Shown here in pieces: positions 1,425 to 31,932 of a stretch of 32,000 nt of DNA. Positions within the stretch are counted from its first letter, which is position 1. Every line of letters starts with the position of its first letter. Origin of the DNA: Candidatus Saccharimonadota bacterium (GTDB lineage: Bacteria > Patescibacteriota > Microgenomatia > UBA1406 > GWC2-37-13); contig CP065004.1 in NCBI GenBank assembly GCA_016700135.1, positions 570,001 through 602,000 on the forward strand, given 5' to 3'. Under the pieces are notes generated by a model. It was not told the origin of the DNA. It saw only the letters and a program-made list of their open reading frames with translations, and did not search any database. Made by a program: the position numbers and the translations under genes.

Positions 1425-2618
1425 ATGTCACGTGTCAAGCTTACTGAATTTAAAGCAAAACAACTCCTTTTTCAAGAGTTAGGCAAAAATTATAAAGGAA
1501 TTGCAGTGACGAAAGAAGGTAAGTCTTACCGATTCTCCTCTTCTCTGTCCCAACTCTCTCCTAAAAAAGAGTACGCGGTAAAAGTAGATCAAGGAATCAA
1601 GGGCCGTATGAAAAAAGGGCTGGTGGCACTAAACGTTAAGAAATCGGATCTGCAGAATATATGTAACCTTTTTGCTCAGAAAGGCTTTACCCGATACCTT
1701 GTGGAAGAAATGCTGCCTCACGAGTCAGCTCAGGAAAAGTATATCTCACTTGAAAGAACCCGTGACGGAATTCTGGTGCGGTTTGCTGCTCAGGGCGGAA
1801 TTGATATTGAAAGTAATAAAGATAAGGTTCGGACTGTTGTGATAACTCATAATGCTCCTCTACCTGTACTGAAAGATCTTGGATTGAAGGCAGAAGAGTT
1901 TGAGGTAATGCGGGAATTATTCGAGAAAAATTATATTTCTTTCATGGAAATAAATCCGTTGGTCATCACTGAGTCAGGGATGCATGCTCTTGATTTAGCT
2001 GTTGAAGTGGATAGTACCGCTGAGTTTTTTGTTAAAAACGGGTGGACAGGTCAGGATGTTGTTGCTGAACAAACCAAATCTGAAGAAGAACAAAAAGTAA
2101 AAGAGCTGAATAGTAAAAGTCAGGCTGCTTTATCGTTTACTCTGTTGAATCAGGACGGATCGATTTGGTGTCTATTATCGGGAGGCGGTGCCAGTATTAC
2201 TCTTGCTGATGAGATTTACAATCTTGGCTATGGACAAGAGCTCGGGAATTACGGGGAGTACTCCGGTAATCCGAATCAGGAGGAAACCTATCTGTATACT
2301 ACATATGTTCTGCAGTCCATGCTGAAAAGTAACAATAAGAAGTTAGTATTGATTATCGGCGGCGGAGTTGCAAATTTTACCGATATCCGAACTACCTTTA
2401 AAGGAGTCCTTCAGGCTCTTGAGGAATATAGAACCCTGCTAAAAAAGCGCAATGTAAAGTTGTATGTTCGCCGCGGAGGTCCTCATCAGGAGGAAGGACT
2501 CGCAATGATTGAAAAGTGGTCACGGGAAAATAATTTGTATGGACATGTTTCAGGTCCGGAACTTCCCCTTCATGAAATTGTACGTCTTGCCGTTAAAACA
2601 TTACCAAAAAAGAAATAA
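1425..2618 (+). CDS. aclB: ATP-citrate lyase beta subunit (succinyl-CoA synthetase beta-like, ATP-grasp)
   Basis: The N-terminus 'MSRVKLTEFKAKQLLF' parallels the ACLY N-terminus (MSAKAISEQTGKELLYKF). At ~397 aa it matches the size of two-subunit AclB (~400 aa). aclA follows 2 nt downstream. The ORF track starts at GTG 1395; ATG 1425 fits homologs better. Confidence 0.8.
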   Translation: MSRVKLTEFKAKQLLFQELGKNYKGIAVTKEGKSYRFSSSLSQLSPKKEYAVKVDQGIKGRMKKGLVALNVKKSDLQNICNLFAQKGFTRYLVEEMLPHESAQEKYISLERTRDGILVRFAAQGGIDIESNKDKVRTVVITHNAPLPVLKDLGLKAEEFEVMRELFEKNYISFMEINPLVITESGMHALDLAVEVDSTAEFFVKNGWTGQDVVAEQTKSEEEQKVKELNSKSQAALSFTLLNQDGSIWCLLSGGGASITLADEIYNLGYGQELGNYGEYSGNPNQEETYLYTTYVLQSMLKSNNKKLVLIIGGGVANFTDIRTTFKGVLQALEEYRTLLKKRNVKLYVRRGGPHQEEGLAMIEKWSRENNLYGHVSGPELPLHEIVRLAVKTLPKKK

Positions 2619-2620
2619 GT

Positions 2621-4408
2621 ATGCTTGACCTCACCAAACTCAGAAATACTGATCATTCAATCATTGCTCTCGGTTCACATCCCGGGATCTTACAGTCAAT
2701 GATGGATTTTGATTATCTGTCAGGAAAACGCGTGCCCGACTTAAAGGCAATTGTTGCATCGGGTAAAAAGTATTTACGACTGTTTTGGGGCAGTCAGGAA
2801 GAAATGATACCGGTGTACGGAACGCTAGAAGATGTCCCTGAAAATATCAGAAACGATACTTCTCTGTTCCTGAATTTAACATCTGGAAGAAGATCAATGT
2901 CCTCTACTCTTGAGATTCTTACGGCACTACCCAATCTCATGGGCGGCACTCTCTTTGCAGAAAATATTCCGGAAAAAAATACTCTCGGTATTTATAATCA
3001 TATAAAGAAAAATCAGTTTGTTGTCGGTCCGGCATCTGTCGGACTGCTGATCCCGGGACATCTTAAACTCGGCGCAATAGGCGGGACTCAGGCAAAACAA
3101 CTACTGGGGGCAAACCTTTTCGAACAAGGCAAGGTTGCTGTGTTTTCATCATCCGGAGGCATGACCAATGAACTTATAAATCTGGTCACCGGAGCCGGTA
3201 AAGGGATTTCATTCAGTCTGTCATTCGGTGGTGATAGGTTTCCGCTGCTCACTCCGATAGATGCCTTTAGGGCTGCAGAAAAGGATAAAAACACTGAGGC
3301 GATAGTTTACTTCGGAGAGCTCGGAGGCTATGATGAGTATGATTTGGTTGAACTTATCAAGGCAAAGAAGATTACAAAAAAAATCATAACATATATCGGC
3401 GGGACGATCAGTGAAATGTTTGAGACGCCTCCCCAGTTTGGACATGCCAAGGCGATGGCCGCAAGGGGAGAGGAAACAGCGCAGGCAAAAACAGCTGCGT
3501 TAAAAGCTGTCGGAGTACATGCAACAAGTTCCTTTACGGAGTTTATCAAACTTGTCCAGTCTTTACCTGATACGAAGATGAATTCTAATAATGCACGTGA
3601 AAAAATGGCAAAAGGAATGTCACAGAGGAAAGCATCTTACTTTATTAACGGAATATCACACGATAAAGACGGTTCCGTTGAAATTGTCGGAAAAGATTTA
3701 CTATCTCTGGCCACAGAACACTCGTATGGATATGTTGTTGGATCAATGCTGTTGGGAAGACAGCTTAAATCCAAAAATACGGCCGAGTTTATTGATCTGG
3801 TGATGAAGCTGCTGGTTGACCATGGCCCGTATGTCTCAGGGGCCGTTAACACGATGATTTCAGCCCGTGCAGGCAAAGATCTGGTATCTTCTGTCGTATC
3901 CGGTCTGTTGACAATAGGACCGCGTTTTGGAGGTGCAATCAACCAGGCAGCGAAACACTGGCTTGAAGGTGTCGATACGCAGGTGTCACCTTACGATTAT
4001 GTCGAATCAATAGCAAAAAAAAGAGGCATTATTTCCGGCATAGGGCATAAAAAGTATCGTGTAGATGCGCCGGATCCGCGCGCGTCCTTGATACTCGAGT
4101 TTACCAAACAGATAAAACAGACATCCTATACAGATTTTGCAAAAGGGGTAGAAAAAATAACTACCGCAAAAAAAGGGAATCTTATTTTGAATGTAGATGG
4201 CGCGATTGCGGCAGTGCTGCTTGATTTGTTATCAGAAAAGGAAGGCCTCACGGTGCGGGAGTTACAGGAATTGATAGATGCTGAGTTCTTTAATGCTTTT
4301 TTTGTACTGTCACGTGCCGTTGGATTTACCGCACATTACCTGGATCAAAAGCGAAGAGATGAAGGATTGTTTAGATTGTCACCAAATGAAGTCGGGTTGA
4401 CAAAGTAA
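2621..4408 (+). CDS. aclA: ATP-citrate lyase alpha subunit (CoA-binding/SCS-alpha-like domain fused to a citrate-synthase-like citryl-CoA lyase domain)
   Basis: The phosphohistidine loop is 'PQFGHAKAM' (His codon 3443-3445; canonical GHAGA). The citrate-synthase signature is 'GIGHKKYRVDAPDPRA' (His codon 4046-4048). The C-terminal 'AHYLDQKRRDEGLFRL' closely mirrors ACLY 'GHYLDQKRLKQGLYRH'. At 595 aa it is close to the ~600 aa of AclA. Confidence 0.85.
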   Translation: MLDLTKLRNTDHSIIALGSHPGILQSMMDFDYLSGKRVPDLKAIVASGKKYLRLFWGSQEEMIPVYGTLEDVPENIRNDTSLFLNLTSGRRSMSSTLEILTALPNLMGGTLFAENIPEKNTLGIYNHIKKNQFVVGPASVGLLIPGHLKLGAIGGTQAKQLLGANLFEQGKVAVFSSSGGMTNELINLVTGAGKGISFSLSFGGDRFPLLTPIDAFRAAEKDKNTEAIVYFGELGGYDEYDLVELIKAKKITKKIITYIGGTISEMFETPPQFGHAKAMAARGEETAQAKTAALKAVGVHATSSFTEFIKLVQSLPDTKMNSNNAREKMAKGMSQRKASYFINGISHDKDGSVEIVGKDLLSLATEHSYGYVVGSMLLGRQLKSKNTAEFIDLVMKLLVDHGPYVSGAVNTMISARAGKDLVSSVVSGLLTIGPRFGGAINQAAKHWLEGVDTQVSPYDYVESIAKKRGIISGIGHKKYRVDAPDPRASLILEFTKQIKQTSYTDFAKGVEKITTAKKGNLILNVDGAIAAVLLDLLSEKEGLTVRELQELIDAEFFNAFFVLSRAVGFTAHYLDQKRRDEGLFRLSPNEVGLTK

Positions 4409-4710: not shown

Positions 4711-6534
4711 TTATTCGTCGTATTTAAATGCAAGGGCATTAATAATGAGGGTATAATCCTGTGAGTCGACGACACCGTCAAAATTGATATCTCCGCGTGC
4801 GACAATATCAGGATCATTTCTACCGACAAAATTTCTCACATACGCGATATCCACCGCATCAACGATTCCGTTTTGAAGCGGTAGGTCACCTGAAAGCAAA
4901 ATAATATTGGTAAAGTCCAGTGTATTATCACCTTTTTTAAAGGTTATGTTTGAGTCTTTACAAAGATATGTTCCGCTGATGTTTTCACTGGGTGAATTGA
5001 CACAAACACGCTTCTGTATATGTTTCGGTCCCTTTATCAGGAACGAATATTTTTTATTTAGATAAATTTTCTCGTAGTTTGTATTAGCTACATATGCACC
5101 GTCAGCTTGAGGTGAGAACTCAACTTGTTTTGTATTTACAACCTTATTTCCCTCGACAAGCTTAATCTGAATAGAAACCGGTGAAGAGTTTTTAGGCTGA
5201 GATGTAATTCCCTGTAATTTTACTCGGAAATTCACGCCTACTTTATTTGCGCTGTCATCCGGGGTTTCCGTAGGATTTTTGTCCGGTGGGAGTGATACCT
5301 CATCAGGAGCCGGCGTGGTCTCGGACGGGAATGGGGAGTTATTATAGGAAAAACAGTATAATCTGTGCTCTTCAGTACAGCTTACACCATCGTATGATAC
5401 CCATGATTTATCTGTTGCATATAATGCGCCAATAATTGCTTTTCCTTCGTTTGAAGTCCAATTATTACAGCTGTTTTTTGTATCAGGATAAGGGTTTGTT
5501 GTCATATGAATGAGAGTACCGGTCCATGCATTAAGATCAGTAACACCTGAAGCAGGTGTTACTTTTGTATCGCTGGAGTTAGTGTCTGAAATAGCAAACA
5601 GGTTTTTACCTGTTTCATCCACGCCGATAGCAGATTGGATGCAATTTGTATCATTTCCATTACATGATCTTAACCGTTCAACATTTTCTGCGAGTAATTC
5701 ACCGTTAATTGTATAAATTGGAACATCAGTATGGTTAAATCTGTCAAATGCATTGCGGGAATATGTTTCTTCGGAGTTTGTTGTACTCAAAAATGCAAAC
5801 CAGTCGCCGTCAAGACCGGCATCGGCAGCATGCTTCATACAGATTGCATCAGCCCCTTCCAAGCCACCTAGAGAACTTGCAGTATATGAATCTGATGTAG
5901 CAAATCCTTTGTAGGTGTAAGGGGTCCCTTGCCCTTTTTCAACCGTGATATCTACTTTTTTAGGTTTGGGACCATCAAGTAGAGGGAAATAATTTCCCGC
6001 AGGGCCGGCAATATCAAAATTCCAACCCTCTACGGTGTCTGACTCAAATGTAATCTTTCCTTTACCTGCATCCTTTGTTGCAAAGAAAAGTCGTGCTACA
6101 CAGAATGCATTTTTTGGAAGATTTTCATCCGTTTTTTTGGATACACGTGTCAATATAATAGTATTGACATTATCCTGTCCGGATACATCCCGCACGTCAA
6201 CGGTTTCTTCAAGACCGTTGCACGATTCTACGATCTCAGATTTTGTTGTAGATTTATCGAAAACCAAGAGATTTCGCGGATACCGAATGAGAACTGTTGC
6301 TGCAGAAAGGGGTTGTATGCTTGTAGCATGAACATCTACGGTGACTTGTTGTACCTGACTTGTAGTTATTATGGAAGGCGTGAAATAAAACTCAACATTG
6401 TTTTCAATAGCTGCCCGCGAGCGTTCACTATAATCATAGAAAAACCCCAGAATTCCGACAGCAATAGCAATCCCCACAACAAGGAGTAAGACTTTTTTCA
6501 TTTTCGGCAAGAATGATGAGTGTTGTGTTTCCAT
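4711..6534 (-). CDS. Membrane-anchored/secreted modular protein: cohesin-like module + DUF1554-like (C-type-lectin-fold) module + Pro/Thr linker + beta-sandwich + duplicated-loop dockerin
   Basis: The N-terminal signal anchor is 'KKVLLLVVGIAIAVGILGFF'. The cohesin-like pattern is 'VTVDVHATSIQPLSAATVLIRYPRNLLVFD ... ARLFFATKDAGKGKITFES'. 'LGGLEGADAICMKHAADAGLDGDWFAFLS' matches the DUF1554 pattern. The C-terminus has two dockerin repeats, 'GDLPLQNGIVDAVDIAYVRNFVG' and 'GDINFDGVVDSQDYTLIINALA'. Confidence 0.75.
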   Translation of the reverse strand: METQHSSFLPKMKKVLLLVVGIAIAVGILGFFYDYSERSRAAIENNVEFYFTPSIITTSQVQQVTVDVHATSIQPLSAATVLIRYPRNLLVFDKSTTKSEIVESCNGLEETVDVRDVSGQDNVNTIILTRVSKKTDENLPKNAFCVARLFFATKDAGKGKITFESDTVEGWNFDIAGPAGNYFPLLDGPKPKKVDITVEKGQGTPYTYKGFATSDSYTASSLGGLEGADAICMKHAADAGLDGDWFAFLSTTNSEETYSRNAFDRFNHTDVPIYTINGELLAENVERLRSCNGNDTNCIQSAIGVDETGKNLFAISDTNSSDTKVTPASGVTDLNAWTGTLIHMTTNPYPDTKNSCNNWTSNEGKAIIGALYATDKSWVSYDGVSCTEEHRLYCFSYNNSPFPSETTPAPDEVSLPPDKNPTETPDDSANKVGVNFRVKLQGITSQPKNSSPVSIQIKLVEGNKVVNTKQVEFSPQADGAYVANTNYEKIYLNKKYSFLIKGPKHIQKRVCVNSPSENISGTYLCKDSNITFKKGDNTLDFTNIILLSGDLPLQNGIVDAVDIAYVRNFVGRNDPDIVARGDINFDGVVDSQDYTLIINALAFKYDE

Positions 6535-6536
6535 AG

Positions 6537-7757
6537 TTATTCGTCACGCTGACGTACTTCTTGATTTGTTCTCCAAATTTCAAAATCCTGGAGTGTCACT
6601 TTTTGATCATTACTAAAATCGGCATCTTTTGTGTTTCTTGTTCGGGTAAATTCACTTTTCCATATATCAAAGTCATCATTGTTTATATGACTATCACAGT
6701 TCGCATCTCCAAGATTTTTTTTCGGACATTCGTCAACAGTTTCGGTTGGTGAGGTTGTAGTTGTTGTTCCCGGTGTAATAGTAGTGTTTTTCCCTCCAAC
6801 AGTGAATGTAAAGGAATCGTAGGTGAGGATAGATGCTGGAATTGTAGCCTGGTAGCCTTCGGCAACCGATACCCTAACCTTATAAATTCCTGCAGGGAGA
6901 GGAGGAAGGGTTAGCGTCTGGGAAAAAGTATTCGTACCGGATGCCAGTTCAAACTCTTGATTTATTGATCCTAATTCATCATTGGCACCTGTCAGAGTTA
7001 ACTTAGCAACAGGGCTTCTTAATTTTTTACCGGAAACTGTCAACGTTCCTGACTGTCCTTCATTTAATGTAGATGGGGATAAAGAAGCTTTGTTTTGATA
7101 TGTTACCCAAAGATCATATAATACTGATGTATATGCTTTGCCGTTTATCTGAGATGTAATGGTCGGAAGAGATGCGTTTTTGGGTGTAGCGATTGCTTTA
7201 TATGTGTAGTTTGTTCCTTCCGTAAGCCCGCTACACTTATAAGCTTTCCTCGATGTAATTTCAGAGTCAGGTACACAATCCGTGACTTTTGTATTTGTGT
7301 TAGCCCGGTATGCAGCAATTTTCGGTGCGTTATATGTCGTTGGCAATTCATCGACTTCATTCAGACTTACGCGTGTGTAGTAGGCTGGTGCAGTTGGCGG
7401 ATCTCTAATAACCTGACAGCAGCTCGGAACAGTCGCGTTTCCATCGTAGATATCATCCATACAAGCGCGTTGATATACCAGGTTTTCTGTTGCACAGATT
7501 CCTAAAGCGTGCACAGGATCAGGAATAAGATTATCAATCAAAATACTGGACATAGAACAATTTAATCCACCTGAACAGGCAGTGTCTCCGTATTGGGGAT
7601 TACAAATTTGGCCGCAAGTCCGATTGGGAGGGACGGAAGTGGGAATTGGTGAGGCTGATGATTGAGCTTTAACAGGTGCGGGCATCTCTGCATGGGTCAG
7701 AAGGAGTAATGTTATGAAAAAAAATCCGAGTATGAGAAATAAATAATGCCTTTGCAT
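6537..7757 (-). CDS. Secreted Cys-rich protein with Ig-like middle region, Thr-rich linker and C-terminal dockerin
   Basis: The signal peptide is 'MQRHYLFLILGFFFITLLLLTHA'. A Cys-rich N-domain follows. The C-terminus carries two dockerin-like repeats, 'GDANCDSHINNDDFDIWKSEF' and 'ADFSNDQKVTLQDFEIWRTN'. I prefer ATG 7757 over the track's TTG 7796 because of the -10 box at 7768-7776. The stop lies 2 nt before the start of the next gene. Confidence 0.75.
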   Translation of the reverse strand: MQRHYLFLILGFFFITLLLLTHAEMPAPVKAQSSASPIPTSVPPNRTCGQICNPQYGDTACSGGLNCSMSSILIDNLIPDPVHALGICATENLVYQRACMDDIYDGNATVPSCCQVIRDPPTAPAYYTRVSLNEVDELPTTYNAPKIAAYRANTNTKVTDCVPDSEITSRKAYKCSGLTEGTNYTYKAIATPKNASLPTITSQINGKAYTSVLYDLWVTYQNKASLSPSTLNEGQSGTLTVSGKKLRSPVAKLTLTGANDELGSINQEFELASGTNTFSQTLTLPPLPAGIYKVRVSVAEGYQATIPASILTYDSFTFTVGGKNTTITPGTTTTTSPTETVDECPKKNLGDANCDSHINNDDFDIWKSEFTRTRNTKDADFSNDQKVTLQDFEIWRTNQEVRQRDE

Positions 7758-7767
7758 GTATGCTTTT

Positions 7768-7776
7768 ACTATAGCA
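7768..7776 (-). promoter_or_regulatory. Extended -10 promoter TGCTATAGT, 10 nt upstream of ATG 7757
   Basis: The minus strand reads gacTTGCTATAGTaaaagcatacATG. No GGAGG-like motif lies in between. Confidence 0.5.
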
Positions 7777-7801
7777 AGTCTTTCTGTAAACAGCAAGATA
7801 C

Positions 7802-9807: not shown

Positions 9808-11145
9808 ATGACTAAACAAAATACCCTGAATGAATTGTCGGAGTTCATCAGTATAAGGTCCGTTTCAGCAGACAGGACTAAGCGACCTGAAATGCGCAAA
9901 GCAATCACTTTTTTAGTAAGAAAACTAAAAAAAATGGGTTTTTCTGTGGAAATCTTAAAAAGACAAGGGGCCCCGTCTGCAATTTTTGCTAAATACTCTA
10001 TACCAAATGCAAAAAAAACAGTCGGTATATACGGACATTATGATGTCCAGCCGGAAGACCCGGTCGAGGAATGGACTGTCAGGCCGTTTGCGCTCAGCAG
10101 ACAAAGCGGAAAGTTGTTCGGAAGAGGTGTGGCAGACAATAAAGGCCACATTATTCAAAATCTTGCAGCCGTTGATTATCTTATCAGTTCGGAAAGCCTT
10201 AAATCAAATATTATTTTCTTCATTGAAGGTGAAGAAGAGTGCGGCAGTGAAAGTTTTTATTCATATATACAGGAAAAGGAACGGGAGCTCAGCTCTCTGG
10301 ATGTTTTTTTCATAACGGATGTCGGGATGCATGCTAAATCGGTACCTCAGATTATTTATGCTTTGCGCGGACTGGTATATTTTGAACTCGAGATACGGAT
10401 AGGGAAGCGGGATCTTCACTCCGGGGTATACGGGAATGCAGTTTTGAATCCGGTACAAGTGCTTGCTGAGCTGTTGGCAAAAATGAAAGATACTAAGACA
10501 GGAGAAGTTCATATTCCCGGCTTCTATGATGATGTCCGTGCGCTAAATTCGGCTGAAATGAGGCTTCTGATGAAAGGAACGGTCGATGATAAAACATTCA
10601 GGAAAGAAGCGGGGACATTCACTGTTACGTCGATGAGAAATGTTCCTTCATTCCTGGCACCAAAAATATTTCCTTCTCTCGATGTGCACGGTATACAGTC
10701 AGGATTTACCGGGGAAGGTCCCAAAACAGTGATTCCTCATCGAGCCAGGGTGAAATTTTCCTGCCGTCTGGTAGAGTTCCAGAACGTTAAGAACACTGAA
10801 AAGCAGATCCGTCAATTTATCGAAACGAATCTTCCTGCAGGCGTCCAGTATGCATTGCAGACTTTTTCGTACGATGATCCTTTTTACACTTCAGTTGACG
10901 ATCCCTATATCAAGAAAACAGCAGAAATTCTCACTGTCCATTTCGGTCATGATACTGTTTTGATGAGAGAAGGAGGCTCAGTTCCTGCCGCTGAAATGAT
11001 GCAGAGGCTTTTTAAAACACCGGTTATCCTTACCGGTTTTGTGTTGCCGGACAGCAATCTCCATGCACCTGATGAAAATTTTGATGAAGAAATGTTTTTC
11101 GAAGGGATAGAAGCCTTAAAAAAAATATACGGAAGTATTGTTTAA
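9808..11145 (+). CDS. M20 family metallopeptidase (dipeptidase / ArgE-DapE-like)
   Basis: Metal-ligand motifs 'GIYGHYDVQP', 'GRGVADNKG' and 'EGEEECGS' are present. Length is 445 aa. Confidence 0.85.
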   Translation: MTKQNTLNELSEFISIRSVSADRTKRPEMRKAITFLVRKLKKMGFSVEILKRQGAPSAIFAKYSIPNAKKTVGIYGHYDVQPEDPVEEWTVRPFALSRQSGKLFGRGVADNKGHIIQNLAAVDYLISSESLKSNIIFFIEGEEECGSESFYSYIQEKERELSSLDVFFITDVGMHAKSVPQIIYALRGLVYFELEIRIGKRDLHSGVYGNAVLNPVQVLAELLAKMKDTKTGEVHIPGFYDDVRALNSAEMRLLMKGTVDDKTFRKEAGTFTVTSMRNVPSFLAPKIFPSLDVHGIQSGFTGEGPKTVIPHRARVKFSCRLVEFQNVKNTEKQIRQFIETNLPAGVQYALQTFSYDDPFYTSVDDPYIKKTAEILTVHFGHDTVLMREGGSVPAAEMMQRLFKTPVILTGFVLPDSNLHAPDENFDEEMFFEGIEALKKIYGSIV

Positions 11146-11183
11146 TATGCAGCTCCCTGAAAACCTTCACACTGTGATAAAGC

Positions 11184-11438
11184 TCATTTCAGGTATTCTT
11201 CGTTACATTCTTTCGACTCATTGTTCGGTTCGCAGTTGACCCATGCATTGGCCGGGCAGCGCCAGTCATTATCCATTGCCTGCTGCATGACATCTTTGTT
11301 GCTAACTTCTTCCTGAGGGGCGACTACCGTTTTACTTCGAAAAAAGAGAACGATAATTATGATAATAAGAAGGAAGAGAATGCCCAGAATATATTTTATG
11401 CGATCATACTTTTTTATGCTGTGGTGTATATGTTTCAT
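11184..11438 (-). CDS. Small single-pass membrane protein with Cys-containing ectodomain (84 aa)
   Basis: The TM segment is 'ILGILFLLIIIIIVLFF'. It starts 3 nt after the gpmA stop, and an AAGGAAAGG purine run lies 8 nt upstream. I recognise no homology. Confidence 0.45.
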   Translation of the reverse strand: MKHIHHSIKKYDRIKYILGILFLLIIIIIVLFFRSKTVVAPQEEVSNKDVMQQAMDNDWRCPANAWVNCEPNNESKECNEEYLK

Positions 11439-11441
11439 AGG

Positions 11442-12074
11442 TTAAACCTTTCCTTTTTTCGGATTGGATGATCGGATTTGTTTTTCTGTGATTTTTGCCT
11501 GATCATCCATTTGATACACATAGACTTCACCGGTACCGATTTCCAGTCCGGCAATTTCATTGTCAGGTATGTCTTCAAGATATTTCACGAGCGCTCTCAA
11601 ACTGTTCCCGCTTGCTGAGACAAGGATGTTTTTGCCGGACTTCAGTTCGGGTTCGATATGTTCTTTGTAATAAGGGAGCAGGCGTTCATATACATCTTTG
11701 AGTGATTCACCGTTCGGGATAGGTTCATCCCAACCCCGACGCCATTTTGTAAACTGTTCTTCACCATATTCTTCTTTGACCACCCACTTATTCTTTCCGG
11801 CAAGATCTCCATAGTTGCGTTCGCGTACTGCAGGAGTGATCACCGTCTCCATTTCGGACTTTCCCAACGCTTTCAAAATTGTTTTTGTTGTCTCTTTGGT
11901 TCTTTGAAGGTCTGCAGTATAGGCTTTATCAAGGGGGATGTCCTGTATAGATTCGGCCGCTTTTTTCGCTTCTTCATACCCTTCCGGGGAAAGTTCAGGA
12001 TCTTTCCATCCGGTCCAAAGGCCTAATTTGTTCCATTCCGAAATACCGTGACGAACGAGCACTAAGTATGACAT
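11442..12074 (-). CDS. gpmA: 2,3-bisphosphoglycerate-dependent phosphoglycerate mutase-like histidine phosphatase (short form)
   Basis: 'LVLVRHGISEWNKLGLWTGW', 'ERNYGDLAGKNK', 'FTKWRRGW' and 'GNSLRALVKYLE' align to dPGM. The normally invariant second His ('AAHGNSLRAL') is Ser here ('SASGNSLRAL', codon 11610-11612). Confidence 0.85.
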   Translation of the reverse strand: MSYLVLVRHGISEWNKLGLWTGWKDPELSPEGYEEAKKAAESIQDIPLDKAYTADLQRTKETTKTILKALGKSEMETVITPAVRERNYGDLAGKNKWVVKEEYGEEQFTKWRRGWDEPIPNGESLKDVYERLLPYYKEHIEPELKSGKNILVSASGNSLRALVKYLEDIPDNEIAGLEIGTGEVYVYQMDDQAKITEKQIRSSNPKKGKV

Positions 12075-12115: not shown

Positions 12116-13624
12116 TTACGGAGTCGGAGTATTCGTCGGGGTGTTGGTCGGAGTCGGCGTGTATGTCGGAGTCGGTGTGGAAGTCGGACATACTGCTGAG
12201 CCTGTTGACCAGGATGACACATGGTTCGTTTCGCCGTAGCCGTCTTCAGCACGGACCCGACAGGTAATAGGCATTCCGTCTCCCGGCATTGCCGCATTGT
12301 AACAGGGAAGATTCTGATAATGGTCGGTTGTGGTGGTATTACAGTACCAGAATGAGGTGCTGTTGAAAGCTCCATCATCAGTACACTGGAGGAAATAATG
12401 ATCAAATTTATTGCTACATCTTGGATCTTTCTGGTAGTCAAAGTCCCATATCCATGAAGTACAGCTATTACCCTGGACATAATCGATATTACAATCAGGG
12501 TCATCTCCGGTGATTCTGGGGCAAGAGGAACTGCTATATATCCAGTCTGTTGCATTCTCTGAACCTCCGTCTTCAGTCTCAGCGCGTACTCGACAGAATA
12601 CAGATTGACCGGGTGCCGGTGACGGAGCTGTCGCACAGGGAAGTGATAGTTGATTGGTTGTCATGGTCTCATTACAGTACCAGGTTGCAGGATCACTTGA
12701 TCCCCAGCTGGTACTTTTACACTGAACAAAATACTTAGTATAAGTGTCTTCGCATGTCTGGCTTTGTGTCAAAACATCATTCCAGATCCATGAGGAACAG
12801 CTGTTCGGCTGAAGGTAGCTCAATGAACAGGCATTTTTTGTCGCTGCACTTACCGGTGTTGCTGTGGGTGAAGTGGAGGGAGCCGCCGTCGGAGAAGTAT
12901 TTGCACCGATCAGACATTTGACATAATCCTGAGTTGTGCACTGGGTGCCCAATGATTTCAAAATAGAAGTACAATCCGTCGTTGCCTGACAGCTTGAGCC
13001 AGTTGTCGGAGGATAGGTTGTGATACTTCCTGACGGTGTTGCTTCAGGAGTCGGATAATAAGTCACTGATCCTGAAGGTGAAGCGGTCATAGTTGGTGTC
13101 GGTACAATTGAGGGAGACGAGGTGGCCGTCTTTGTCGGAGACAATGTTGCAGAACCTGTTCCGACTTCAATAGACGGAAGGGGAACGTCGGGATCTACTT
13201 CCGTTCCTTCTCCTGCCGGAGTGGTAAAGGTCCACGGTGAACCGCCGTCATCATATACATTTTCTCCGCTTCGGATACGGAAGTAATACGTTGTATTGGG
13301 TTGAAGTCCGCCGATTTGTATTGTATGTTCGGTTGCTTCCAGATCACCGAAGGAGACTTCTGTCATAGCATCCGGAGAAGTCCCGTACTCTACAACAGCG
13401 ATTGTTTCCTTGCCTGTTTGAAAAGTGACTTGCGCACTCTGACTGTCTACCGGTGAAGCGCTTACGTTTGAAGGAGCTTCTTCATTTGCTTCTGTTGCCG
13501 TGCCCTGAATCAGAAAAAAGGTCATAATAATAATTGCCAATAAGAGAGGAATCCCGACGGAAGCGGCGATAAGCATGATCTTTCGTTGAGATAGTTTATT
13601 TTTTAGTACGGTTGCAACTGGCAT
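12116..13624 (-). CDS. Membrane-anchored surface protein: FN3-like domain, Pro/Thr/Ser linkers, 4-Cys motif and two tandem ~102-aa 8-Cys modules
   Basis: The signal anchor is 'IMLIAASVGIPLLLAIIIMTFFLI'. The FN3-like stretch is 'VTFQTGKETIAVVEYGTSPD...LQPNTTYYFRI'. Repeats C266-C368 and C378-C479 have superimposable Cys spacing. The tail is 'TPTPTYTPTPTNTPTNTPTP'. Confidence 0.8.
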   Translation of the reverse strand: MPVATVLKNKLSQRKIMLIAASVGIPLLLAIIIMTFFLIQGTATEANEEAPSNVSASPVDSQSAQVTFQTGKETIAVVEYGTSPDAMTEVSFGDLEATEHTIQIGGLQPNTTYYFRIRSGENVYDDGGSPWTFTTPAGEGTEVDPDVPLPSIEVGTGSATLSPTKTATSSPSIVPTPTMTASPSGSVTYYPTPEATPSGSITTYPPTTGSSCQATTDCTSILKSLGTQCTTQDYVKCLIGANTSPTAAPSTSPTATPVSAATKNACSLSYLQPNSCSSWIWNDVLTQSQTCEDTYTKYFVQCKSTSWGSSDPATWYCNETMTTNQLSLPCATAPSPAPGQSVFCRVRAETEDGGSENATDWIYSSSSCPRITGDDPDCNIDYVQGNSCTSWIWDFDYQKDPRCSNKFDHYFLQCTDDGAFNSTSFWYCNTTTTDHYQNLPCYNAAMPGDGMPITCRVRAEDGYGETNHVSSWSTGSAVCPTSTPTPTYTPTPTNTPTNTPTP

Positions 13625-13626
13625 AA

Positions 13627-14235
13627 TTATTTTGTTTTAAGCTTAGTCATCAGTTTGCGGTATCTCATAAACAATACTGCTGTCAGAATAATCATCAACA
13701 GTGATACGATAACGTATCCCCAAGTCGGCTGCACTCCGTTGCCCACTGAGACTCCCAAGACTTCCTGACGATCATTAATTACTACGGAAGTGGAATGTGA
13801 ACGGGTACTGGTACAGTTGATAATATTTGAAAGCTCTTCATCATTACGGATAATTTGTGATGTTTGAGACATAAAAGGAACGCAGTCAAAACGCAGTTCA
13901 GTAGAGCCTTCCTTTTGAGCCTGAAAGTATATGGTCGCGATTTTCCCGTTTGTAACCTGTTTCAGATCAGCAGACGGATTGATTGCATATATATATAAAC
14001 TTCCCGGTTGAATAACTTTTGCATCCACACTTTGGAATAATTCACCCTTTTTCAGTTCAGGGTTCTGCGGAGATGCAATACTCAGGATAGAGGGATCATA
14101 TGAGATATAAATATCAGTTGAAATTACCGGGTCCGCTCCACTGTAAATCATCACATCCACGGGGATTATATCGCCTGCAGAAGCCGAAATGTTTACCGGT
14201 TCAAAAGAAAAGGAGGCAATTGCTGATTGTGACAT
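13627..14235 (-). CDS. Cohesin-like domain protein with C-terminal TM anchor and basic tail, no N-terminal signal peptide
   Basis: The cohesin-like pattern is 'FEPVNISASAGDIIPVDVMIYSGADPVISTDIYISYDPSILSI ... GKIATIYFQAQKEGSTELRF'. The C-terminus is 'VQPTWGYVIVSLLMIILTAVLFMRYRKLMTKLKTK'. The stop lies 2 nt before the start of the next gene. Confidence 0.7.
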   Translation of the reverse strand: MSQSAIASFSFEPVNISASAGDIIPVDVMIYSGADPVISTDIYISYDPSILSIASPQNPELKKGELFQSVDAKVIQPGSLYIYAINPSADLKQVTNGKIATIYFQAQKEGSTELRFDCVPFMSQTSQIIRNDEELSNIINCTSTRSHSTSVVINDRQEVLGVSVGNGVQPTWGYVIVSLLMIILTAVLFMRYRKLMTKLKTK

Positions 14236-14241
14236 ATTATT

Positions 14242-14247
14242 ATTTTA
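14242..14247 (-). promoter_or_regulatory. -10 box TAAAAT, 6 nt upstream of ATG 14235
   Basis: The minus strand reads ccgagTAAAATaataatATG. Confidence 0.35.
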
Positions 14248-14332
14248 CTCGGATACGTGGGAAGGATGCAAGGGATACTTTTCATGAATCTTATCATGAA
14301 GCCTCCAATCCCCATTTCTTCAATCCTTTAGT

Positions 14333-15586
14333 TCAGAACCCATTCTCAATCTCAACCAGTCGGTTGTACTTTGCCAGTCTTTCACTTCGTGACATTGAAC
14401 CGGTTTTTATAAACTCAGCTCCTGCTCCGTAAGCAAGATCCGCAATAAACGTATCTTCCGTTTCTCCTGATCGATGTGAAACAGCGACGTTCCATCCTGC
14501 CGCTTGAGTCATCTGAATGGCATCTATAGTTTCAGAGACCGAGCCAATTTGGTTGAGTTTGATAAGGACTGCATTTGAAGCCCCTTCGTCTATACCTTTT
14601 TGAATCCGTTTAGGATTTGTGACGAAGAGATCGTCTCCGACCACCTGAAATTGGAACTTTTCAGCCAATTCCGTAAATTTTGTAAAGGCGCTCCAATCAT
14701 CTTCGGCAAACGGGTCTTCAAATGACTGAATATTGTATTTCTGGCCGATCTCCTGATAATAAACGACCATTTCTTCTGATGATTTGGTTTGATTATTCTT
14801 TTTTAAGACATATGAGCCGTTTTCATAAAATTCCGTTGCGGCACAATCAACAGCAAACTCGAAATCTTTGTTGCGGGAGTATCCGAGGTTTTTAGCCGCT
14901 TCTTCGATGGTTTCAAAAACTTCTTCGTTGGATGATAATGCAGGAGAATACCCGCCTTCATCACCGACAAGTGTTGACAGTTTTCGCTTTTTAAGTACAT
15001 TTCCGAGCTCCGCGAAGATTTCAGCTGCAAGTCGTACGGATGCAGTCGGTTTATTGGAAATAGGCATCACCATAAATTCCTGAATATCGAAGTTCCATCC
15101 GGCGTGTTTGCCTCCGTTGACAACATTCACCATGAGTCTCGGGAAAGAAGGTTCAATCGTGTGATCACCTATAAAGTAGTAAGTATTGATAAACTTCCAA
15201 AGCGGCATATCTGCAGCATATGCTGCAGCCCGATGAAGAGCGAGAGAAACGGATAAAATTGCATTTGCTCCCAATTTTGATTTGTTTTCAGACCCATCCA
15301 TTTTGAGCATTATTTCATCCAGTTTTCTCGGATCAGCAATCTCCTGACCGACGAGCGTTTTTGCAATTTGGGAATTTACATTTTGTACTGCTTTTTGCAC
15401 TCCCTGACCAAGGAATTTTGAAGTATCACCATCGCGGAGCTCAAGGGCTTCATGTGTCCCTGTCGAAGCTCCAGAAGGAACTGATGCTTTGTGAACAGAA
15501 CCGTCATCCAAAGTTACAAATGCGCGAATGGTTGGTTTACCGCGAGAATCGAGTATCTCGAGGGCTTTGATTTCCTTGATTTTCAT
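14333..15586 (-). CDS. eno: Enolase (phosphopyruvate hydratase)
   Basis: 'ILDSRGKPTI', 'SVPSGASTGTHEALELRDGD' and 'SHRSGETEDTFIADLA' are present. Length is 417 aa. Confidence 0.97.
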   Translation of the reverse strand: MKIKEIKALEILDSRGKPTIRAFVTLDDGSVHKASVPSGASTGTHEALELRDGDTSKFLGQGVQKAVQNVNSQIAKTLVGQEIADPRKLDEIMLKMDGSENKSKLGANAILSVSLALHRAAAYAADMPLWKFINTYYFIGDHTIEPSFPRLMVNVVNGGKHAGWNFDIQEFMVMPISNKPTASVRLAAEIFAELGNVLKKRKLSTLVGDEGGYSPALSSNEEVFETIEEAAKNLGYSRNKDFEFAVDCAATEFYENGSYVLKKNNQTKSSEEMVVYYQEIGQKYNIQSFEDPFAEDDWSAFTKFTELAEKFQFQVVGDDLFVTNPKRIQKGIDEGASNAVLIKLNQIGSVSETIDAIQMTQAAGWNVAVSHRSGETEDTFIADLAYGAGAEFIKTGSMSRSERLAKYNRLVEIENGF

Positions 15587-15647: not shown

Positions 15648-17216
15648 ATGAAACTGTTTTTAGTCCGTCACGGCGAGAGTATCGGAAACACAAAACAAGG
15701 CTTTATATCGGGTCAAACTGATCCTGACGGTTTATCTCCCAAAGGACGAATTCAGATTATCCGTACGGCATGGGAGTTGAAAAATGATCAATACGATCAA
15801 ATATATTCAAGCCCTGTCGCCCGTGCTCAGGAGACAGCGGCAATCCTAAAAAGTTATCTCGGTTCATCAGTGAAAACGGCAGATTGGCTTACCGAGCTTC
15901 ATCACGGAATATTTGAAGGGTACTATTGGTGGGAAGTAATTCATAAAATTCCGCCTTCCTGGCGTGCGAGAAGAGAGGATTTCCGAACGCCCTATCCAAA
16001 GGGGGAAAGTATGGAGCTTCTCATCAAACGTATCTCCGATGGTTTGAAAAAGTGGCTCACTACGTTAGACGAAAGCGGATCGTATATTGTAGTCAGTCAT
16101 CAGGTAGTCATCACGACTATACGATACTGCCTTGAGCATGGCGACGCTTCAACACTCGATACGCAACAATCTCAGCAGGATTTCCTGAAGTATCTGCATG
16201 AGGTTAAACTCGATAACGGATGTTTTGCCCAACTTACACTCAAGAACAATACATTGATTTCAACAAAGGAGGTCTCAGATTTCCCACCTCTCAAGCCGAA
16301 TAAAAACAATATTGCATTTTATTCGAAGGAACTGTTGCAACTCCGTAAAGAGCCTGAAACCGAGAGAATGGAAACCGCATCGGGTAATTCCGTGTATAAA
16401 CTCCAAATGTCAGCGCCAAAAATTATAAAAGTGGTACATGACAAGGACCATGAAGCATTTCAGAGGCAGATAGATCTATATCAATATCTGAATAGTAAAA
16501 AGATCTCGTCTCCGGTAGTTGAACGGGTAGATTCGAGTCAGGTCTTTTTTGGGTATGATGTACTTGTCCAGGATTACGTTGCCGGGGATGTTATAAAGAA
16601 ATGTTTTATTGACCACCCCCAAAAAGTGGACTTGCTTCTTGAAAAAGTGTATGAGGCTCTCGTGCAGATACACAGTCTCCCGGTGGATGAAGTACGACCG
16701 TTTTGGAAGCCTCCGCTTGAGGAGCAGTTTGTCCAGTGGAAAAATTATATGCTTCTCAACATCAATATGACTCTGCATATTGTTCAGGAGAAAAGCGTTA
16801 CAGATGCTACTTATAAAAAAATTGAAGAGGCACTTTCCTGCCTCAAAGATTATGTACGAGAGGAGAGATACGCACTGGAGCCGATACATGGGGATGTGGG
16901 CTCCGACAATATTATCGTACACCACAATACATCATGCAGATTTGTCCGCCTGATTGATTTTGAGTGGGCACGTATTGGAGACGGTTTATGGGATTTTGCT
17001 TATTTCTGGGGATGGCTGGAGAGGAACAATGAAGAAGTCTCTGAAAAGTGGGAAAGGATTTTGCGGAAATATTTCCCTGACCAGATGGTACAACTTGATT
17101 GGTATCGGATCCTTTTTCATGCATGGACTGTGCGTGATATGATGGATTACAAAGATCATCCTATACGGCTTCGTCGCGGCAGAAAGTCGATGGAGATACT
17201 GGAAATGCTTTCTTAA
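15648..17216 (+). CDS. Fusion protein: N-terminal histidine phosphatase (PGM-family) + C-terminal APH/choline-kinase-like phosphotransferase
   Basis: The N-domain has 'LVRHGESIGN', 'SSPVARAQETA' and 'VVSHQVV'. The C-domain has the Brenner motif 'HGDVGSDNIIV' (16887-16910) and 'LIDFEWARIGD' (Asp codon 16956-16958). It is a single uninterrupted 522-aa ORF. Confidence 0.8.
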   Translation: MKLFLVRHGESIGNTKQGFISGQTDPDGLSPKGRIQIIRTAWELKNDQYDQIYSSPVARAQETAAILKSYLGSSVKTADWLTELHHGIFEGYYWWEVIHKIPPSWRARREDFRTPYPKGESMELLIKRISDGLKKWLTTLDESGSYIVVSHQVVITTIRYCLEHGDASTLDTQQSQQDFLKYLHEVKLDNGCFAQLTLKNNTLISTKEVSDFPPLKPNKNNIAFYSKELLQLRKEPETERMETASGNSVYKLQMSAPKIIKVVHDKDHEAFQRQIDLYQYLNSKKISSPVVERVDSSQVFFGYDVLVQDYVAGDVIKKCFIDHPQKVDLLLEKVYEALVQIHSLPVDEVRPFWKPPLEEQFVQWKNYMLLNINMTLHIVQEKSVTDATYKKIEEALSCLKDYVREERYALEPIHGDVGSDNIIVHHNTSCRFVRLIDFEWARIGDGLWDFAYFWGWLERNNEEVSEKWERILRKYFPDQMVQLDWYRILFHAWTVRDMMDYKDHPIRLRRGRKSMEILEMLS

Positions 17217-17254: not shown

Positions 17255-17762
17255 GAAATTGTGAAACAGAAACTAATTCTTCATTTTTTCCTCTTCTTGC
17301 TTATTCTCTTCATGGGCATTGGTGTAAAAGCCTCAACTCAAGGTATGGCAATTATGCCTCCTGATTCGGATCCTTCAGGAATATTCGGTGAGGATCATTA
17401 TTATTCAGTTATTTTTCGCGGTAACGGCGATACTGTCGTAAATCTGAAGGCTATCTTTACAAATACGGAAGAGGCAACGGTATCTGCAGTAACGCTGCGA
17501 GCTCCCAAAGGTCCGTTAGAAGACATCGTGGCGTATCAGATTATCAGAGACCGCAGATGTCTTCGGTACGAAACAGTCAGGATAATGCCAACTCCCGGTG
17601 TTGTTGAAGATCGTTATGATCCCCCCAAATGCATACAGTATGAGAACCCGGACTTTTATGGATATTATTATTCCGGCAATACTAAGTATAAGAAGGCAAT
17701 AGTGAAAACAGAGGGGGATGTGATAACTCTTACCCTTCCTGAAGGTGTTTCTCCCGAATCAA

Positions 17763-17769
17763 ATGCCAG
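17763..17769. repeat. Target-site duplication ATGCCAG (left copy)
   Basis: An identical 7-mer directly abuts both IS ends (17763-17769 and 18485-18491). Confidence 0.8.
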
Positions 17770-17784
17770 GGCTCTAGACTAGCA
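17770..17784. repeat. IS terminal inverted repeat (left)
   Basis: GGCTCTAGACTAGCA is the exact reverse complement of 18470-18484. Confidence 0.85.
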
Positions 17785-18448
17785 CATTAACAATTTGTAA
17801 TAGTTCATTGTAAAGGATCGATGGGGATTTGCTCCATCTCCATTCACACTCTTTCAAGTGTAATGGAAAGTTTTTCTTTACACCATTGAACTTAACGAGA
17901 CGTCTTTTACAAAAGGACCAGAATGACTCTATGCCATTGATATGGACCCCTTTTGTATTTGAGAACTCATTTTTCTTGTGATTGATTCTCAAATGTTTGT
18001 CATACCCGACATCAACAAGTCCGTTGTATCCGCTCCACGAATCTGAATATACAGTACTGTTCAAGTCAATCTTTCCCTTCATAACAGCATGTAGCGTTCT
18101 TCTTTTACAGTTTGGAATGATACGAGTAAATACACGTCCTTGACGCTCATATATCCCAAATACTACCTGCTTAAATGACGTCCCACGACCTCTTTTACTT
18201 GACTTGCCTCTCATCCTTCGAGGTCCAAAGTATGATTCATCAATTTCTATCTCACCACCAACATATCGTTGCATCTGGTGCACTTGGTGATGATATATGA
18301 GTTGACGAATATTATTGTAATATTTGTTGACTGTATTGCGGTTGAGACCCAAAATACCAGAGGTCTGTGTAGCACTCAGATCGTGTGCAAAACACCATAG
18401 TATCTTTTTTCTCTTGTATTTTGATATCGGCCTATTGTTACAAACCAT
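17774..18448 (-). CDS. IS1595/ISXO2-like DDE transposase (224 aa)
   Basis: The N-terminal HTH is 'LSATQTSGILGLNRNTVNKYY'. The DDE-type region is 'EIDESYFG...VYSDSWSGY...HINGIESFWSFCKRRL', typical of the DDE_Tnp_IS1595 family. Confidence 0.85.
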   Translation of the reverse strand: MVCNNRPISKYKRKKILWCFAHDLSATQTSGILGLNRNTVNKYYNNIRQLIYHHQVHQMQRYVGGEIEIDESYFGPRRMRGKSSKRGRGTSFKQVVFGIYERQGRVFTRIIPNCKRRTLHAVMKGKIDLNSTVYSDSWSGYNGLVDVGYDKHLRINHKKNEFSNTKGVHINGIESFWSFCKRRLVKFNGVKKNFPLHLKECEWRWSKSPSILYNELLQIVNVLV

Positions 18449-18454
18449 ACCTCT

Positions 18455-18463
18455 AGTTTAGCA
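18455..18463 (-). promoter_or_regulatory. Extended -10 TGCTAAACT inside the IS, 6 nt upstream of transposase ATG 18448
   Basis: The minus strand reads gtagTGCTAAACTagaggtATG. Confidence 0.4.
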
Positions 18464-18469
18464 CTACTC

Positions 18470-18484
18470 TGCTAGTCTAGAGCC
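18470..18484. repeat. IS terminal inverted repeat (right)
   Basis: TGCTAGTCTAGAGCC. Confidence 0.85.
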
Positions 18485-18491
18485 ATGCCAG
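18485..18491. repeat. Target-site duplication ATGCCAG (right copy)
   Basis: See the left copy. Confidence 0.8.
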
Positions 18492-19406
18492 TTACATACT
18501 CTATTATCGTTCCAAAGCATATACTCAAAAGGATTTTGCCGGATCCTATTCATATATCTTTGAAACTCTCAAAACGGAATCACCGATCCGGACACTTCAG
18601 GTCGGAATTTCAACAGATATTGATCTGCGGCTGAAAGACGCGTCGTCTGATGTCAATTACGCCGATTCGTCATTAACAGAGCTTAAAGCTGCTCCGACTT
18701 TGGGTTCGGCAGGTATGTCAAACCAGGCGTTTGACCGATATTACCAGCAGATAGGTCAGGGGATGATTGTTGAACATGCTAGTTCCCTGCAGCCTCTTGA
18801 TACTTTTACAGTAGAAGGTTCTTATGCAAAATCACTCTGGCAGCTTCACGCAAAAACATTAGTTATTGTTGTCGTGATAGTGCTTGTCGTACTTGCCGGT
18901 ATCGGATATGGTTTATTCAGATTGTTTAAGCATCTCCGAAGAAAGTCGACAACTGTAGCCCCCGGCCCTCATTCCGGACTGCATACGGTTTTATGGATGG
19001 TCGGCAGCAGCTTCGGATCTTCCATTCTGACTGCCGGGTACACGGTTTTTCTGTTTATTCTCATGAATTTTGTAAGCGGATCTTTTTATATCGGTTATGA
19101 GTACAATTTGCTCGTTTCGCTTTTTGTAATGATTTTGTCTCTTGCGGTTTATCCGCTCTGCCTTTTTGTTCCGGCTATTGTAATGGGGGTCAAGAAAGGT
19201 CTTTGGTGGGGCATAGGTACCTTTGCAATGACAATTGCCTGGCTGTTAATATATCTCTTTGTTGTGTTCGGCTTTCTTGTAATGCTCAGAATGAACAGCT
19301 CATATCCCCGTCCCATGCCATACATCTACGGGACCACTGATAGTGTTGTCCCCGAAACTTCCGACGCAAAATAAGAACGAATTCTTCTGCATTTTTTAAC
19401 GGGATT

Positions 19407-31925: not shown

Positions 31926-31932
31926 ACCCATG

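Follow-up and report, generated by a model that had tools for sequence, protein, structure and literature searches.

A bacterium deposited as Candidatus Saccharimonadota (GenBank assembly GCA_016700135.1, contig CP065004.1), placed by its GTDB lineage in the Microgenomatia, carries directly downstream of the enolase gene eno two adjoining genes that we call A and B. Gene A encodes a cohesin protein of 202 residues, and gene B an FN3-domain protein of 502 residues. The window analysed is the stretch of 32,000 nucleotides from position 570,001 to 602,000 of this contig; coordinates are window positions, related loci are numbered L001 to L033, and proteins of the A family carry P-numbers. Comparison of A with its relatives shows that it descends from cohesin proteins that carry a signal peptide and are anchored by sortase through an LPx[ST]G signal, and that the A subfamily exchanged this signal for a permanent transmembrane helix with a basic tail, preceded by a stalk motif, VLG. 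The clade of the window apparently lost the signal peptide in a single deletion. As a surface-protein pair the locus is ordinary and typical of its lineage; what sets it apart is the lack of that signal peptide, a state both odd and stable. We propose that A and B constitute a conserved two-gene cell-surface module of Roizmanbacteria-type bacteria of the candidate phyla radiation (CPR; Microgenomates), with the cohesin outside the cell, an explanation that we regard as having about an even chance of being right.

Gene A occupies positions 13627-14235 of the minus strand. The cohesin-like domain that an earlier note, made from the sequence alone, had attributed to its product was confirmed: residues 16-119 match Pfam Cohesin (PF00963) with 32.5 bits against a cut-off of 24.1, and a profile built from 31 members of the A family matches cohesins of the PDB by sequence (E 4e-6). 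An AlphaFold2 model of A, for which 12 homologues served as input, is of moderate confidence (mean predicted local distance difference test, pLDDT, 68.5), contains 10 strand elements and agrees with the nine-stranded beta-sandwich (jelly-roll) characteristic of cohesins. When this model was compared with the PDB by Foldseek, the top 40 matches were all cohesins, with no non-cohesin fold found and sequence identities of 7-18% among the cohesin matches. The best match is 6kgd_A (E 1.2e-7, TM-score 0.70; target-normalised TM-scores reach 0.71), and the anchoring scaffoldins ScaE (2zf9) and OlpA (3ul4) are included. The cohesin domain spans approximately residues 7-157 (13765-14217, minus strand) and contains Cys118 and Cys141, which, together with Gly161, form the only invariant non-methionine columns in 31 diverse members, both with and without a signal peptide. 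Residues 122-139, between the two cysteines, have pLDDT values below 50.

Relative to its closest relative, L008, A has a ratio of nonsynonymous to synonymous substitution rates (dN/dS) of 0.045 and B of 0.035, with values of 0.106 for eno and 0.069 for gpmA, the phosphoglycerate mutase gene on the other side of the pair. Given these low ratios, A and B are functional and under strongly purifying selection; that either might be a pseudogene was rejected on the same values.

The C-terminus of A consists, in order, of the motif VLGVS (residues 159-163; 13747-13761, minus strand), an 11-residue spacer, a 17-residue hydrophobic helix (residues 174-190, YVIVSLLMIILTAVLFM) and the 12-residue tail RYRKLMTKLKTK (residues 191-202), of which six residues are lysine or arginine; helix and tail together are encoded at 13630-13716 (minus strand). 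The mean Kyte-Doolittle hydropathy of the helix is 3.09 over 15 residues, and the AlphaFold2 model places a helix at residues 171-199. In the 31 members compared, G161 of the motif is invariant and V159 and L160 are each conserved in at least 90%, while the stalk in which the motif lies (residues 158-170) has pLDDT values below 50 and is probably unstructured.

The history of this C-terminus was traced through the wider family. A profile search for relatives of A found 621 proteins, and those classified were the listed representatives of at most 340 residues from the best 150, together with 12 close homologues. Eighty-five of the classified relatives possess a signal peptide, a cohesin domain, a low-complexity linker, the pentapeptide LPx[ST]G, a hydrophobic segment and a tail of 2-3 residues, a layout that by its sequence is that of a classical sortase substrate and the same as that of ScaE. 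Thirty-five family representatives lack LPXTG; VLGx[ST] takes its place in them and is followed by a helix and a basic tail of greater length. It is within this VLG group that all of the classified proteins without a signal peptide are found. The conserved C-terminal element of the subfamily, VLG[AVT][ST], lies 11-13 residues ahead of the helix, at the site where the 85 wider relatives have LPx[ST]G. Tail length is 12.5 residues for the type of A, compared with 2.8 in the LPXTG relatives.

These features bear on the possibility that the C-terminus is a cleavable signal for an enzyme of the sortase, exosortase or rhombosortase kind, perhaps recognised through VLG, in which case A would be covalently attached to wall or lipid. 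The three-part arrangement, in which a hydrophobic helix stands between a conserved motif and a basic tail, has the hydrophobic segment and positive tail (174-190, RYRKLMTKLKTK) typical of sortase substrates, it occupies the position of LPx[ST]G in the 85 relatives, and its motif is conserved in an apparently unstructured stalk. Against this, neither A nor any of the 35 VLG-type members contains LPXTG, and no NCBIfam model for exosortase, archaeosortase or rhombosortase signals reached its threshold on A, the best being VPAMP-CTERM with 13.8 bits against 32 (E 0.043). No sortase family was matched among the window's open reading frames of at least 100 residues, as the earlier note had remarked for the window, and none of the four unannotated reading frames inspected for it (26-979, 17261-17782, 18700-19374 and 31431-31958) contains a TLxTC motif. 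VLG was also considered as a sorting signal shared with other proteins and was rejected, since no C-terminus of the type VLG-helix-basic tail occurs outside the A family in the window or in L001-L017. The tail, far longer and more basic than in LPXTG relatives, fits a permanent anchor, and a sortase, acting extracellularly, would still require a route of export for its substrate. We therefore consider a cleavable signal quite improbable; judged by its sequence, A is neither a sortase nor an exosortase substrate. The suggestion in the earlier note that the hexapeptide VQPTWG with the following helix forms a sortase- or exosortase-type signal fails in that VQPTWG is not conserved among homologues; what survives of it is an evolutionary basis, in that the C-terminus lies where 85 wider relatives carry LPx[ST]G.

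At its other end, A begins with MSQSAIASFSFEP, directly at the first strand of the domain, and has no hydrophobic N-terminal stretch: the maximal 10-residue hydropathy there is 1.66, compared with at least 2.3 in relatives. An in-frame TAA lies four codons upstream of the ATG, and in-frame stops precede A in each of the loci examined that lack a signal peptide. The absence of an N-terminal signal peptide and the C-terminal anchoring by a single transmembrane helix, both pointed out previously, are thus upheld. The syntenic orthologues in L006, L007 and L031-33 carry canonical signal peptides; in one example, MKYIFVFLLVLLFSVPPVFA followed by APASLSFDP aligns to M..SAIASFSFEP of the window, and some 20 signal-peptide codons are missing from the window's clade. 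Relatives with an upstream signal peptide, which the earlier note had envisaged, therefore exist among more distant orthologues, while the clade of the window has none.

That the missing signal peptide has a trivial origin, be it an overlooked start, a frameshift, a gap in the assembly or a pseudogene, was considered. This view drew on a database variant of a signal peptide-bearing orthologue, P0229, that looked truncated, and on an out-of-frame reading frame upstream of A in the window. P0229, taken up as an intermediate in a recent loss, proved to be a 193-residue protein cut by a run of N in its scaffold: it equals residues 19-211 of the orthologue, identical except for its GTG-encoded initial methionine. 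The upstream frame (MIRFMKS...) does not resemble a signal peptide and is interrupted by a stop in the 97.5%-identical locus L008. Moreover, the state without a signal peptide is seen in at least 25 cluster representatives at the 50% identity level from independent samples. To this are added the in-frame stops, the dN/dS of A and three different junctions with eno: in one, a promoter-like element ends 6-7 nt ahead of the ATG; in another, seen in L029/30, there is an AAGGAG site and the ATG lies 18 nt past the eno stop; in the third, that of L016, the start of A and the stop of eno overlap as ATGA. An artefact is, on this evidence, scarcely credible. The scaffold gap that yields P0229 is a run of 100 N at positions 2860-2959 of L033, which takes out the last part of eno and the beginning of the cohesin gene.

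Whether the signal peptide was lost once or several times was addressed through trees. In a rough neighbour-joining tree of the A proteins, which are short, the two states were intermingled, an appearance of several independent losses that was discounted when the longer B proteins were used: in the neighbour-joining tree of B, loci with and without a signal peptide in A were separated in 99 of 100 bootstraps, so that one loss suffices.

A lacks a signal peptide, and its one transmembrane helix falls within the last 30 or so residues, which is the layout of a tail-anchored protein; the question is on which side of the membrane its cohesin lies. The N-terminal domain of A, approximately 170 residues, is acidic with a net charge of -8, and the corresponding domains of the other members without a signal peptide are likewise acidic. 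The charges flanking the helix, 0 on the N-terminal side and +6 in the tail, predict an orientation with the N-terminus outside (N-out). Across the family, the mean number of lysines and arginines in the tail is 5.1 in proteins without a signal peptide, 2.6 in VLG-type proteins with one and 0.8 in LPXTG relatives, and the N-terminal flanks of the first group are neutral. Per-column conservation correlates between members with and without a signal peptide (rho 0.68), which argues against a changed compartment or function. B and the dockerin-bearing proteins encoded in the window are extracytoplasmic, and this favours an outward cohesin. There is a preliminary precedent in Streptomyces coelicolor, where six of 20 tail-anchored candidates were predicted to be N-out and SCO2900 was accessible to protease (PMC3087755). 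Display of the cohesin outside the cell comes, in our estimate, close to an even chance and perhaps just reaches it.

We propose the following model. The A-B pair would be transcribed from its own promoter-like element after eno as a leaderless mRNA, with translation of B coupled to that of A. The acidic N-domain and the basic tail would cause the C-terminal helix of A to act as a reverse signal anchor, giving rise to an N-out tail-anchored protein, a single-cohesin, membrane-anchored molecule resembling an anchoring scaffoldin. B would be a disulfide-rich protein of three beta-sandwiches, one FN3 and two FN3-like with eight cysteines each, using its N-terminal helix as a hold. More speculatively, co-translational insertion of B could tether the A-B mRNA at the membrane and thereby aid the export of A. 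Once outside the cell, A might serve as the surface attachment of dockerin-bearing proteins or of B itself. The specific proposal that the acidic, Cys-pair domain of about 170 residues is exported without a signal peptide by a reverse signal-anchor helix and basic tail alone, possibly aided by mRNA tethering, is tentative, and we rate it rather below even.

Several considerations weigh against an outward cohesin and the model built on it. To our knowledge, there is no established bacterial route by which a domain of about 170 residues is translocated post-translationally through a C-terminal helix alone. The best-known case of N-tail translocation, E. coli ProW, involves about 100 residues. 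The charge bias was compared between groups that are related by descent and do not count as independent samples; the C118-C141 disulfide is putative, with pLDDT below 50 in the intervening stretch; B and the nearby dockerins are candidate binding partners of the cohesin, and in the signal peptide-bearing locus L007 the dockerin genes are not at this position; the promoter and the leaderless transcript are inferred from sequence conservation. Characterised tail-anchored proteins, finally, face the cytoplasm and translocate very short tails (PMC6794478).

The last point speaks for the converse orientation, in which A is a classical tail-anchored protein with its N-terminus inside and the cohesin has assumed a new scaffolding role in the cytoplasm, for instance by binding a cytoplasmic partner or the cytoplasmic tail of B. 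The well-studied tail-anchored proteins all face the cytoplasm (PMC6794478), and A has their layout, its single helix ending 12 residues before the C-terminus with no signal peptide ahead. This orientation would dispense with an export route for the N-domain, for which none is known, and it would give a reason for the unusually conserved basic, cytoplasmic N-tail of B. Yet it would require a 12-residue tail with six lysines or arginines to cross the membrane in violation of the positive-inside rule, and in members that lost the signal peptide this tail became more basic rather than less. The Cys pair remains invariant and the conservation profile resembles that of the exported relatives, both of which argue against a change of compartment or function; and the N-tail of B is older than the loss of the signal peptide, since it is also present in signal peptide-bearing lineages. 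A cytoplasmic cohesin is thus unlikely in our judgement, if still to be taken seriously.

Gene B (12116-13624, minus strand; supported, as A, by Pfam, an AlphaFold2 model and dN/dS) encodes an N-terminal helix and three beta-sandwich domains. Its basic N-tail (MPVATVLKNKLSQRK) and the adjoining hydrophobic helix (13502-13624, minus strand) correspond to the motif ATxLKKxLSKKQ followed by a helix, which is kept in at least 30 homologues; the hydrophobic stretch is about 24 residues long and the AlphaFold2 helix extends over residues 13-43. A conserved site at the boundary of TxA and SEEAP is a possible cleavage site, so that B may be either N-anchored or supplied with a long signal peptide. Export of A by hitch-hiking on B through the twin-arginine translocation (Tat) pathway was considered and rejected: B conserves SKKQ (SQRK in the window), not a twin-arginine motif, and a KK pair is generally incompatible with Tat export.

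The helix of B is followed by an FN3 domain of the purple-acid-phosphatase N-terminal type (13220-13486, minus strand; pLDDT about 90), which matches PF16656 (Pur_ac_phosph_N) above threshold, with 40.3 bits against a cut-off of 30, and PF00041 (FN3) just under threshold, with 24 against 25; its profile also matches FN3 domains of the PDB. A disordered linker of about 70 residues rich in proline, threonine and serine (residues 140-210; 12995-13207, minus strand; pLDDT 30-38) leads to a four-cysteine, two-helix mini-module (residues 211-242; 12899-12994, minus strand), for which AlphaFold2 predicts helices at 218-223 and 231-242 and in which C218, C229 and C237 are invariant. Next come two tandem eight-cysteine modules, each about 105 residues long (258-370 and 375-480; 12185-12853, minus strand), modelled with pLDDT values mostly of 86-96 that fall at the module junction and the C-terminal end, and the protein terminates in a tail rich in proline and threonine. 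Twenty cysteines of B, grouped 4 + 8 + 8, are invariant or nearly so in 33 homologues. The eight-cysteine modules matched no Pfam family and no PDB sequence. In Foldseek comparisons the whole B model aligns with triple-FN3 arrays over about 450 columns, and the modules are predicted to be disulfide-rich beta-sandwiches of FN3 or Ig type, not a new fold. The description of B as a signal-anchored FN3 protein with novel Cys modules consequently holds for the anchor, the FN3 domain and the lack of Pfam or PDB relatives of the modules; where a new fold is meant, the predicted FN3-like sandwiches contradict it.

The surroundings of the pair are those of its lineage. On the minus strand, eno (14333-15586; enolase of 417 residues) is followed after 97 nt by A, which is followed after 2 nt by B, and after a further 41 nt by gpmA (11442-12074; dPGM-type phosphoglycerate mutase of 210 residues), next to which lies a gene for a small membrane protein with cysteines. 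The A stop and B start read TAAttATG, in agreement with the two same-strand genes and 2-nt gap between eno and gpmA first noticed in the sequence. Both flanking identities are backed by NCBIfam and Pfam, with 530 bits for TIGR01060 and matches to Enolase_N and Enolase_C in the case of eno, and 195.7 bits for TIGR01258 in that of gpmA. In related loci drawn from metagenome-assembled genomes at NCBI, JGI and ENA metagenomes and Logan assemblies, with identities to A down to 34%, the order eno-A-B is kept wherever the flanks can be read (approximately 30 loci), and eno lies directly upstream of A in every locus whose flank is present. The adjacency of gpmA and B is variable, being seen in L002, L006 and L016 and not in L005, L024 and L029. 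The labels on homologues of B read Candidatus Roizmanbacteria or Woesebacteria, which makes the host a CPR bacterium of the Microgenomates group, and the homologues of A are annotated publicly just as "cohesin domain-containing protein" or "hypothetical protein". Even the distant LPXTG-type cohesin gene of L015 is trailed by a gene encoding a transmembrane helix and an FN3 domain, which indicates that the A-B pair is old.

Because the order eno-A-B recurs in some 30 loci, the position after eno is ordinary for Roizmanbacteria-type Microgenomates, and A-B is no insertion. The placement within a central-metabolism cluster, which had seemed unusual, is thereby shown to be lineage-typical, and the synteny comparison that had been recommended gave a constant eno-A-B order in all readable relatives, with gpmA next to B in only some. 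A recent horizontal insertion of the pair was rejected in view of the conserved synteny and a GC content of 0.445-0.472 against a window mean of about 0.42, an elevation that is due to proline and threonine codons. A constant neighbourhood might instead be taken to mean that A-B is tied to glycolysis, for instance by tethering enolase and phosphoglycerate mutase or by displaying enolase on the surface, and there are lineages in which A overlaps the stop codon of eno or comes immediately after it. The whole neighbourhood, however, is collinear among relatives (APH-fusion, eno, A, B, gpmA, M20 peptidase, Rpe, TGT), so that order need not mean function; gpmA adjacency is variable, A usually has a promoter-like element of its own, and ancestral A was exported with a sortase signal. 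A glycolytic role is accordingly highly improbable, and the proximity of A-B to eno and gpmA probably reflects conserved gene order with no metabolic role.

The promoter-like element of the pair, TTGCAT-18 nt-TAAAAT (14242-14271, minus strand), ends 6 nt before the A ATG and is the single match to its pattern in the window. In the form CTTGCA(T/A)-N18-GTA(A/C)AAT, it recurs at the equivalent sites of L007-L014 and L018-L028, ending 6-7 nt before the A ATG in loci without a signal peptide; most related loci provide A with a conserved element of its own. Across eight diverged loci the blocks CTTGCA and GTA(A/C)AAT are invariant while the 18-nt spacer is variable. No Shine-Dalgarno sequence was found upstream of A. 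This conservation suggests a dedicated promoter for A-B and, since the element ends 6 nt before the ATG, a leaderless or near-leaderless transcript.

Two adjoining genes about 6-7 kb from A provide candidate partners for its cohesin. The first (4711-6534, minus strand) encodes a membrane-anchored protein of 607 residues, conserved in L002-L004, that comprises an N-terminal membrane helix, a cohesin-like N-domain matched by the A-family profile at residues 48-170 (E 3.6e-7), a lectin-like segment of DUF1554/endostatin-like type and a C-terminal type I dockerin; the last matches Dockerin_1 with 28.8 bits against a cut-off of 22.9, and with 31 bits when the C-terminal fragment is searched. The second (6537-7796, minus strand) encodes a secreted, Cys-rich protein of 419 residues with a dockerin-like C-terminus, in which two DxNxD...DFxIW repeats can be read in the translation and Dockerin_1 scores 16 bits (E 0.014), below threshold. 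Fusions of cohesin and dockerin also occur in the wider A family (P0210 and P0222). Taken together, these sequences suggest a non-cellulolytic cohesin-dockerin docking network in a CPR genome. No glycoside hydrolase family was found in the scanned window reading frames of at least 100 residues, and the dockerin-bearing proteins of the window carry lectin-like or Cys-rich regions and no domains of carbohydrate-active enzymes, which distinguishes the locus from a cellulosome.

Among known systems, A may by analogy be functionally closest to the single-cohesin anchoring scaffoldins, of which ScaE is an example. Like A, ScaE of Ruminococcus flavefaciens and OlpA and OlpC of Clostridium thermocellum are small proteins with one cohesin and a C-terminal surface tether; the layout of ScaE (signal peptide, cohesin, LPXTG signal) is that of A's wider relatives, and the dockerin-bearing proteins encoded near A extend the likeness. 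In contrast to these scaffoldins, A has no signal peptide, LPXTG signal or SLH domain, and possesses a permanent transmembrane helix with a basic tail; and unlike cellulosomes, its window contains no dockerin-bearing cellulases or other carbohydrate-active enzymes and its host is a CPR bacterium. Non-cellulosomal cohesins of Archaeoglobus fulgidus (2xdh) and Clostridium perfringens (2jh2 and 2vo8) are among the Foldseek matches of A at ranks 23, 28 and 35. They resemble A in presenting a cohesin fold outside a cellulolytic context, but belong to secreted multidomain enzymes or are soluble, and none is a tail-anchored mono-cohesin lacking a signal peptide. In a limited search of the literature, nothing was found on cohesin anchors in CPR or Patescibacteria.

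With respect to topology, A resembles DjlC, Flk and SciP/TssL of E. coli and SCO2900 of S. coelicolor, all of which lack a signal peptide and span the membrane once, by a helix at the very C-terminal end. In the cases studied, the tail-anchor helix is sufficient for membrane targeting (PMC3087755, PMC6794478), and SCO2900 is reported to be probably N-out (PMC3087755). Unlike the studied tail-anchored proteins, which mostly face the cytoplasm, A has flank charges that predict the opposite orientation and an N-domain derived from an exported Cys-pair surface domain. B, for its part, is comparable to tandem FN3 arrays, with a first domain that matches PF16656 and a model that aligns with arrays of three FN3 domains; it differs from them in having no catalytic domain, in the eight invariant cysteines of each of its second and third sandwiches, and in the four-cysteine mini-module that precedes these.

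CPR bacteria are tiny, mostly uncultured and dependent on cell contact, and little is known of how their surfaces are organised. The pairing of a cohesin anchor with an FN3 protein represents a widespread and strongly conserved surface module of Microgenomates, for whose anchoring most lineages use a sortase signal and other lineages a permanent helix, and the variants of the family in which a cohesin is combined with a dockerin or an anchor hint at cellulosome-like docking put to uses other than cellulose. The deletion of the signal peptide throughout a clade, with the other constraints kept, amounts to a natural experiment in membrane-protein biogenesis. Should the cohesin lie outside, A would offer a tractable model substrate for N-out insertion of bacterial tail anchors, and a natural, evolutionarily stable case of a mode of export barely documented in bacteria; should it lie inside, a rare instance of an extracellular docking module relocated to the cytoplasm would be at hand. 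If neither holds, the locus is a plain lineage-specific surface-protein operon.

Several further observations were made in the window and the related loci. The small transmembrane, four-cysteine protein encoded after gpmA (11139-11438, minus strand) has an in-frame TGA at 11184-11186 where L001, L008, L014 and L018 have TGG (Trp), and the frame downstream (ALSQCEGFQGAAY and the stop) is intact; the TGA reflects a nonsense mutation specific to the strain or else an error of sequencing, and does not signify a change of genetic code, since eno ends in TGA as a true stop. Divergent from eno, a gene at 15648-17216 (plus strand), kept in the same place in L002-L006, encodes a 522-residue fusion of a histidine phosphatase (PGM-like) and an APH-type kinase. 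An IS1595-family transposase gene (PF12762, 96.7 bits; 17774-18448, minus strand), within window positions 17261-19374, splits the orthologue of a 473-residue membrane protein that is intact in L002, the fragments at 17324-17767 and 18481-19347 matching residues 24-174 and 172-465 of that protein. The related loci L008, L013 and L014, 84-98% identical at the A protein, come from GTDB genome records titled "uncultured Gammaproteobacteria bacterium", labels that are probably wrong. Two adjoining genes with domains of ATP-citrate-lyase type (1395-4408, plus strand), one combining Citrate_bind with ATP-grasp and the other CoA-ligase with citrate synthase, are also present in L007, a pair notable for a reduced CPR genome.

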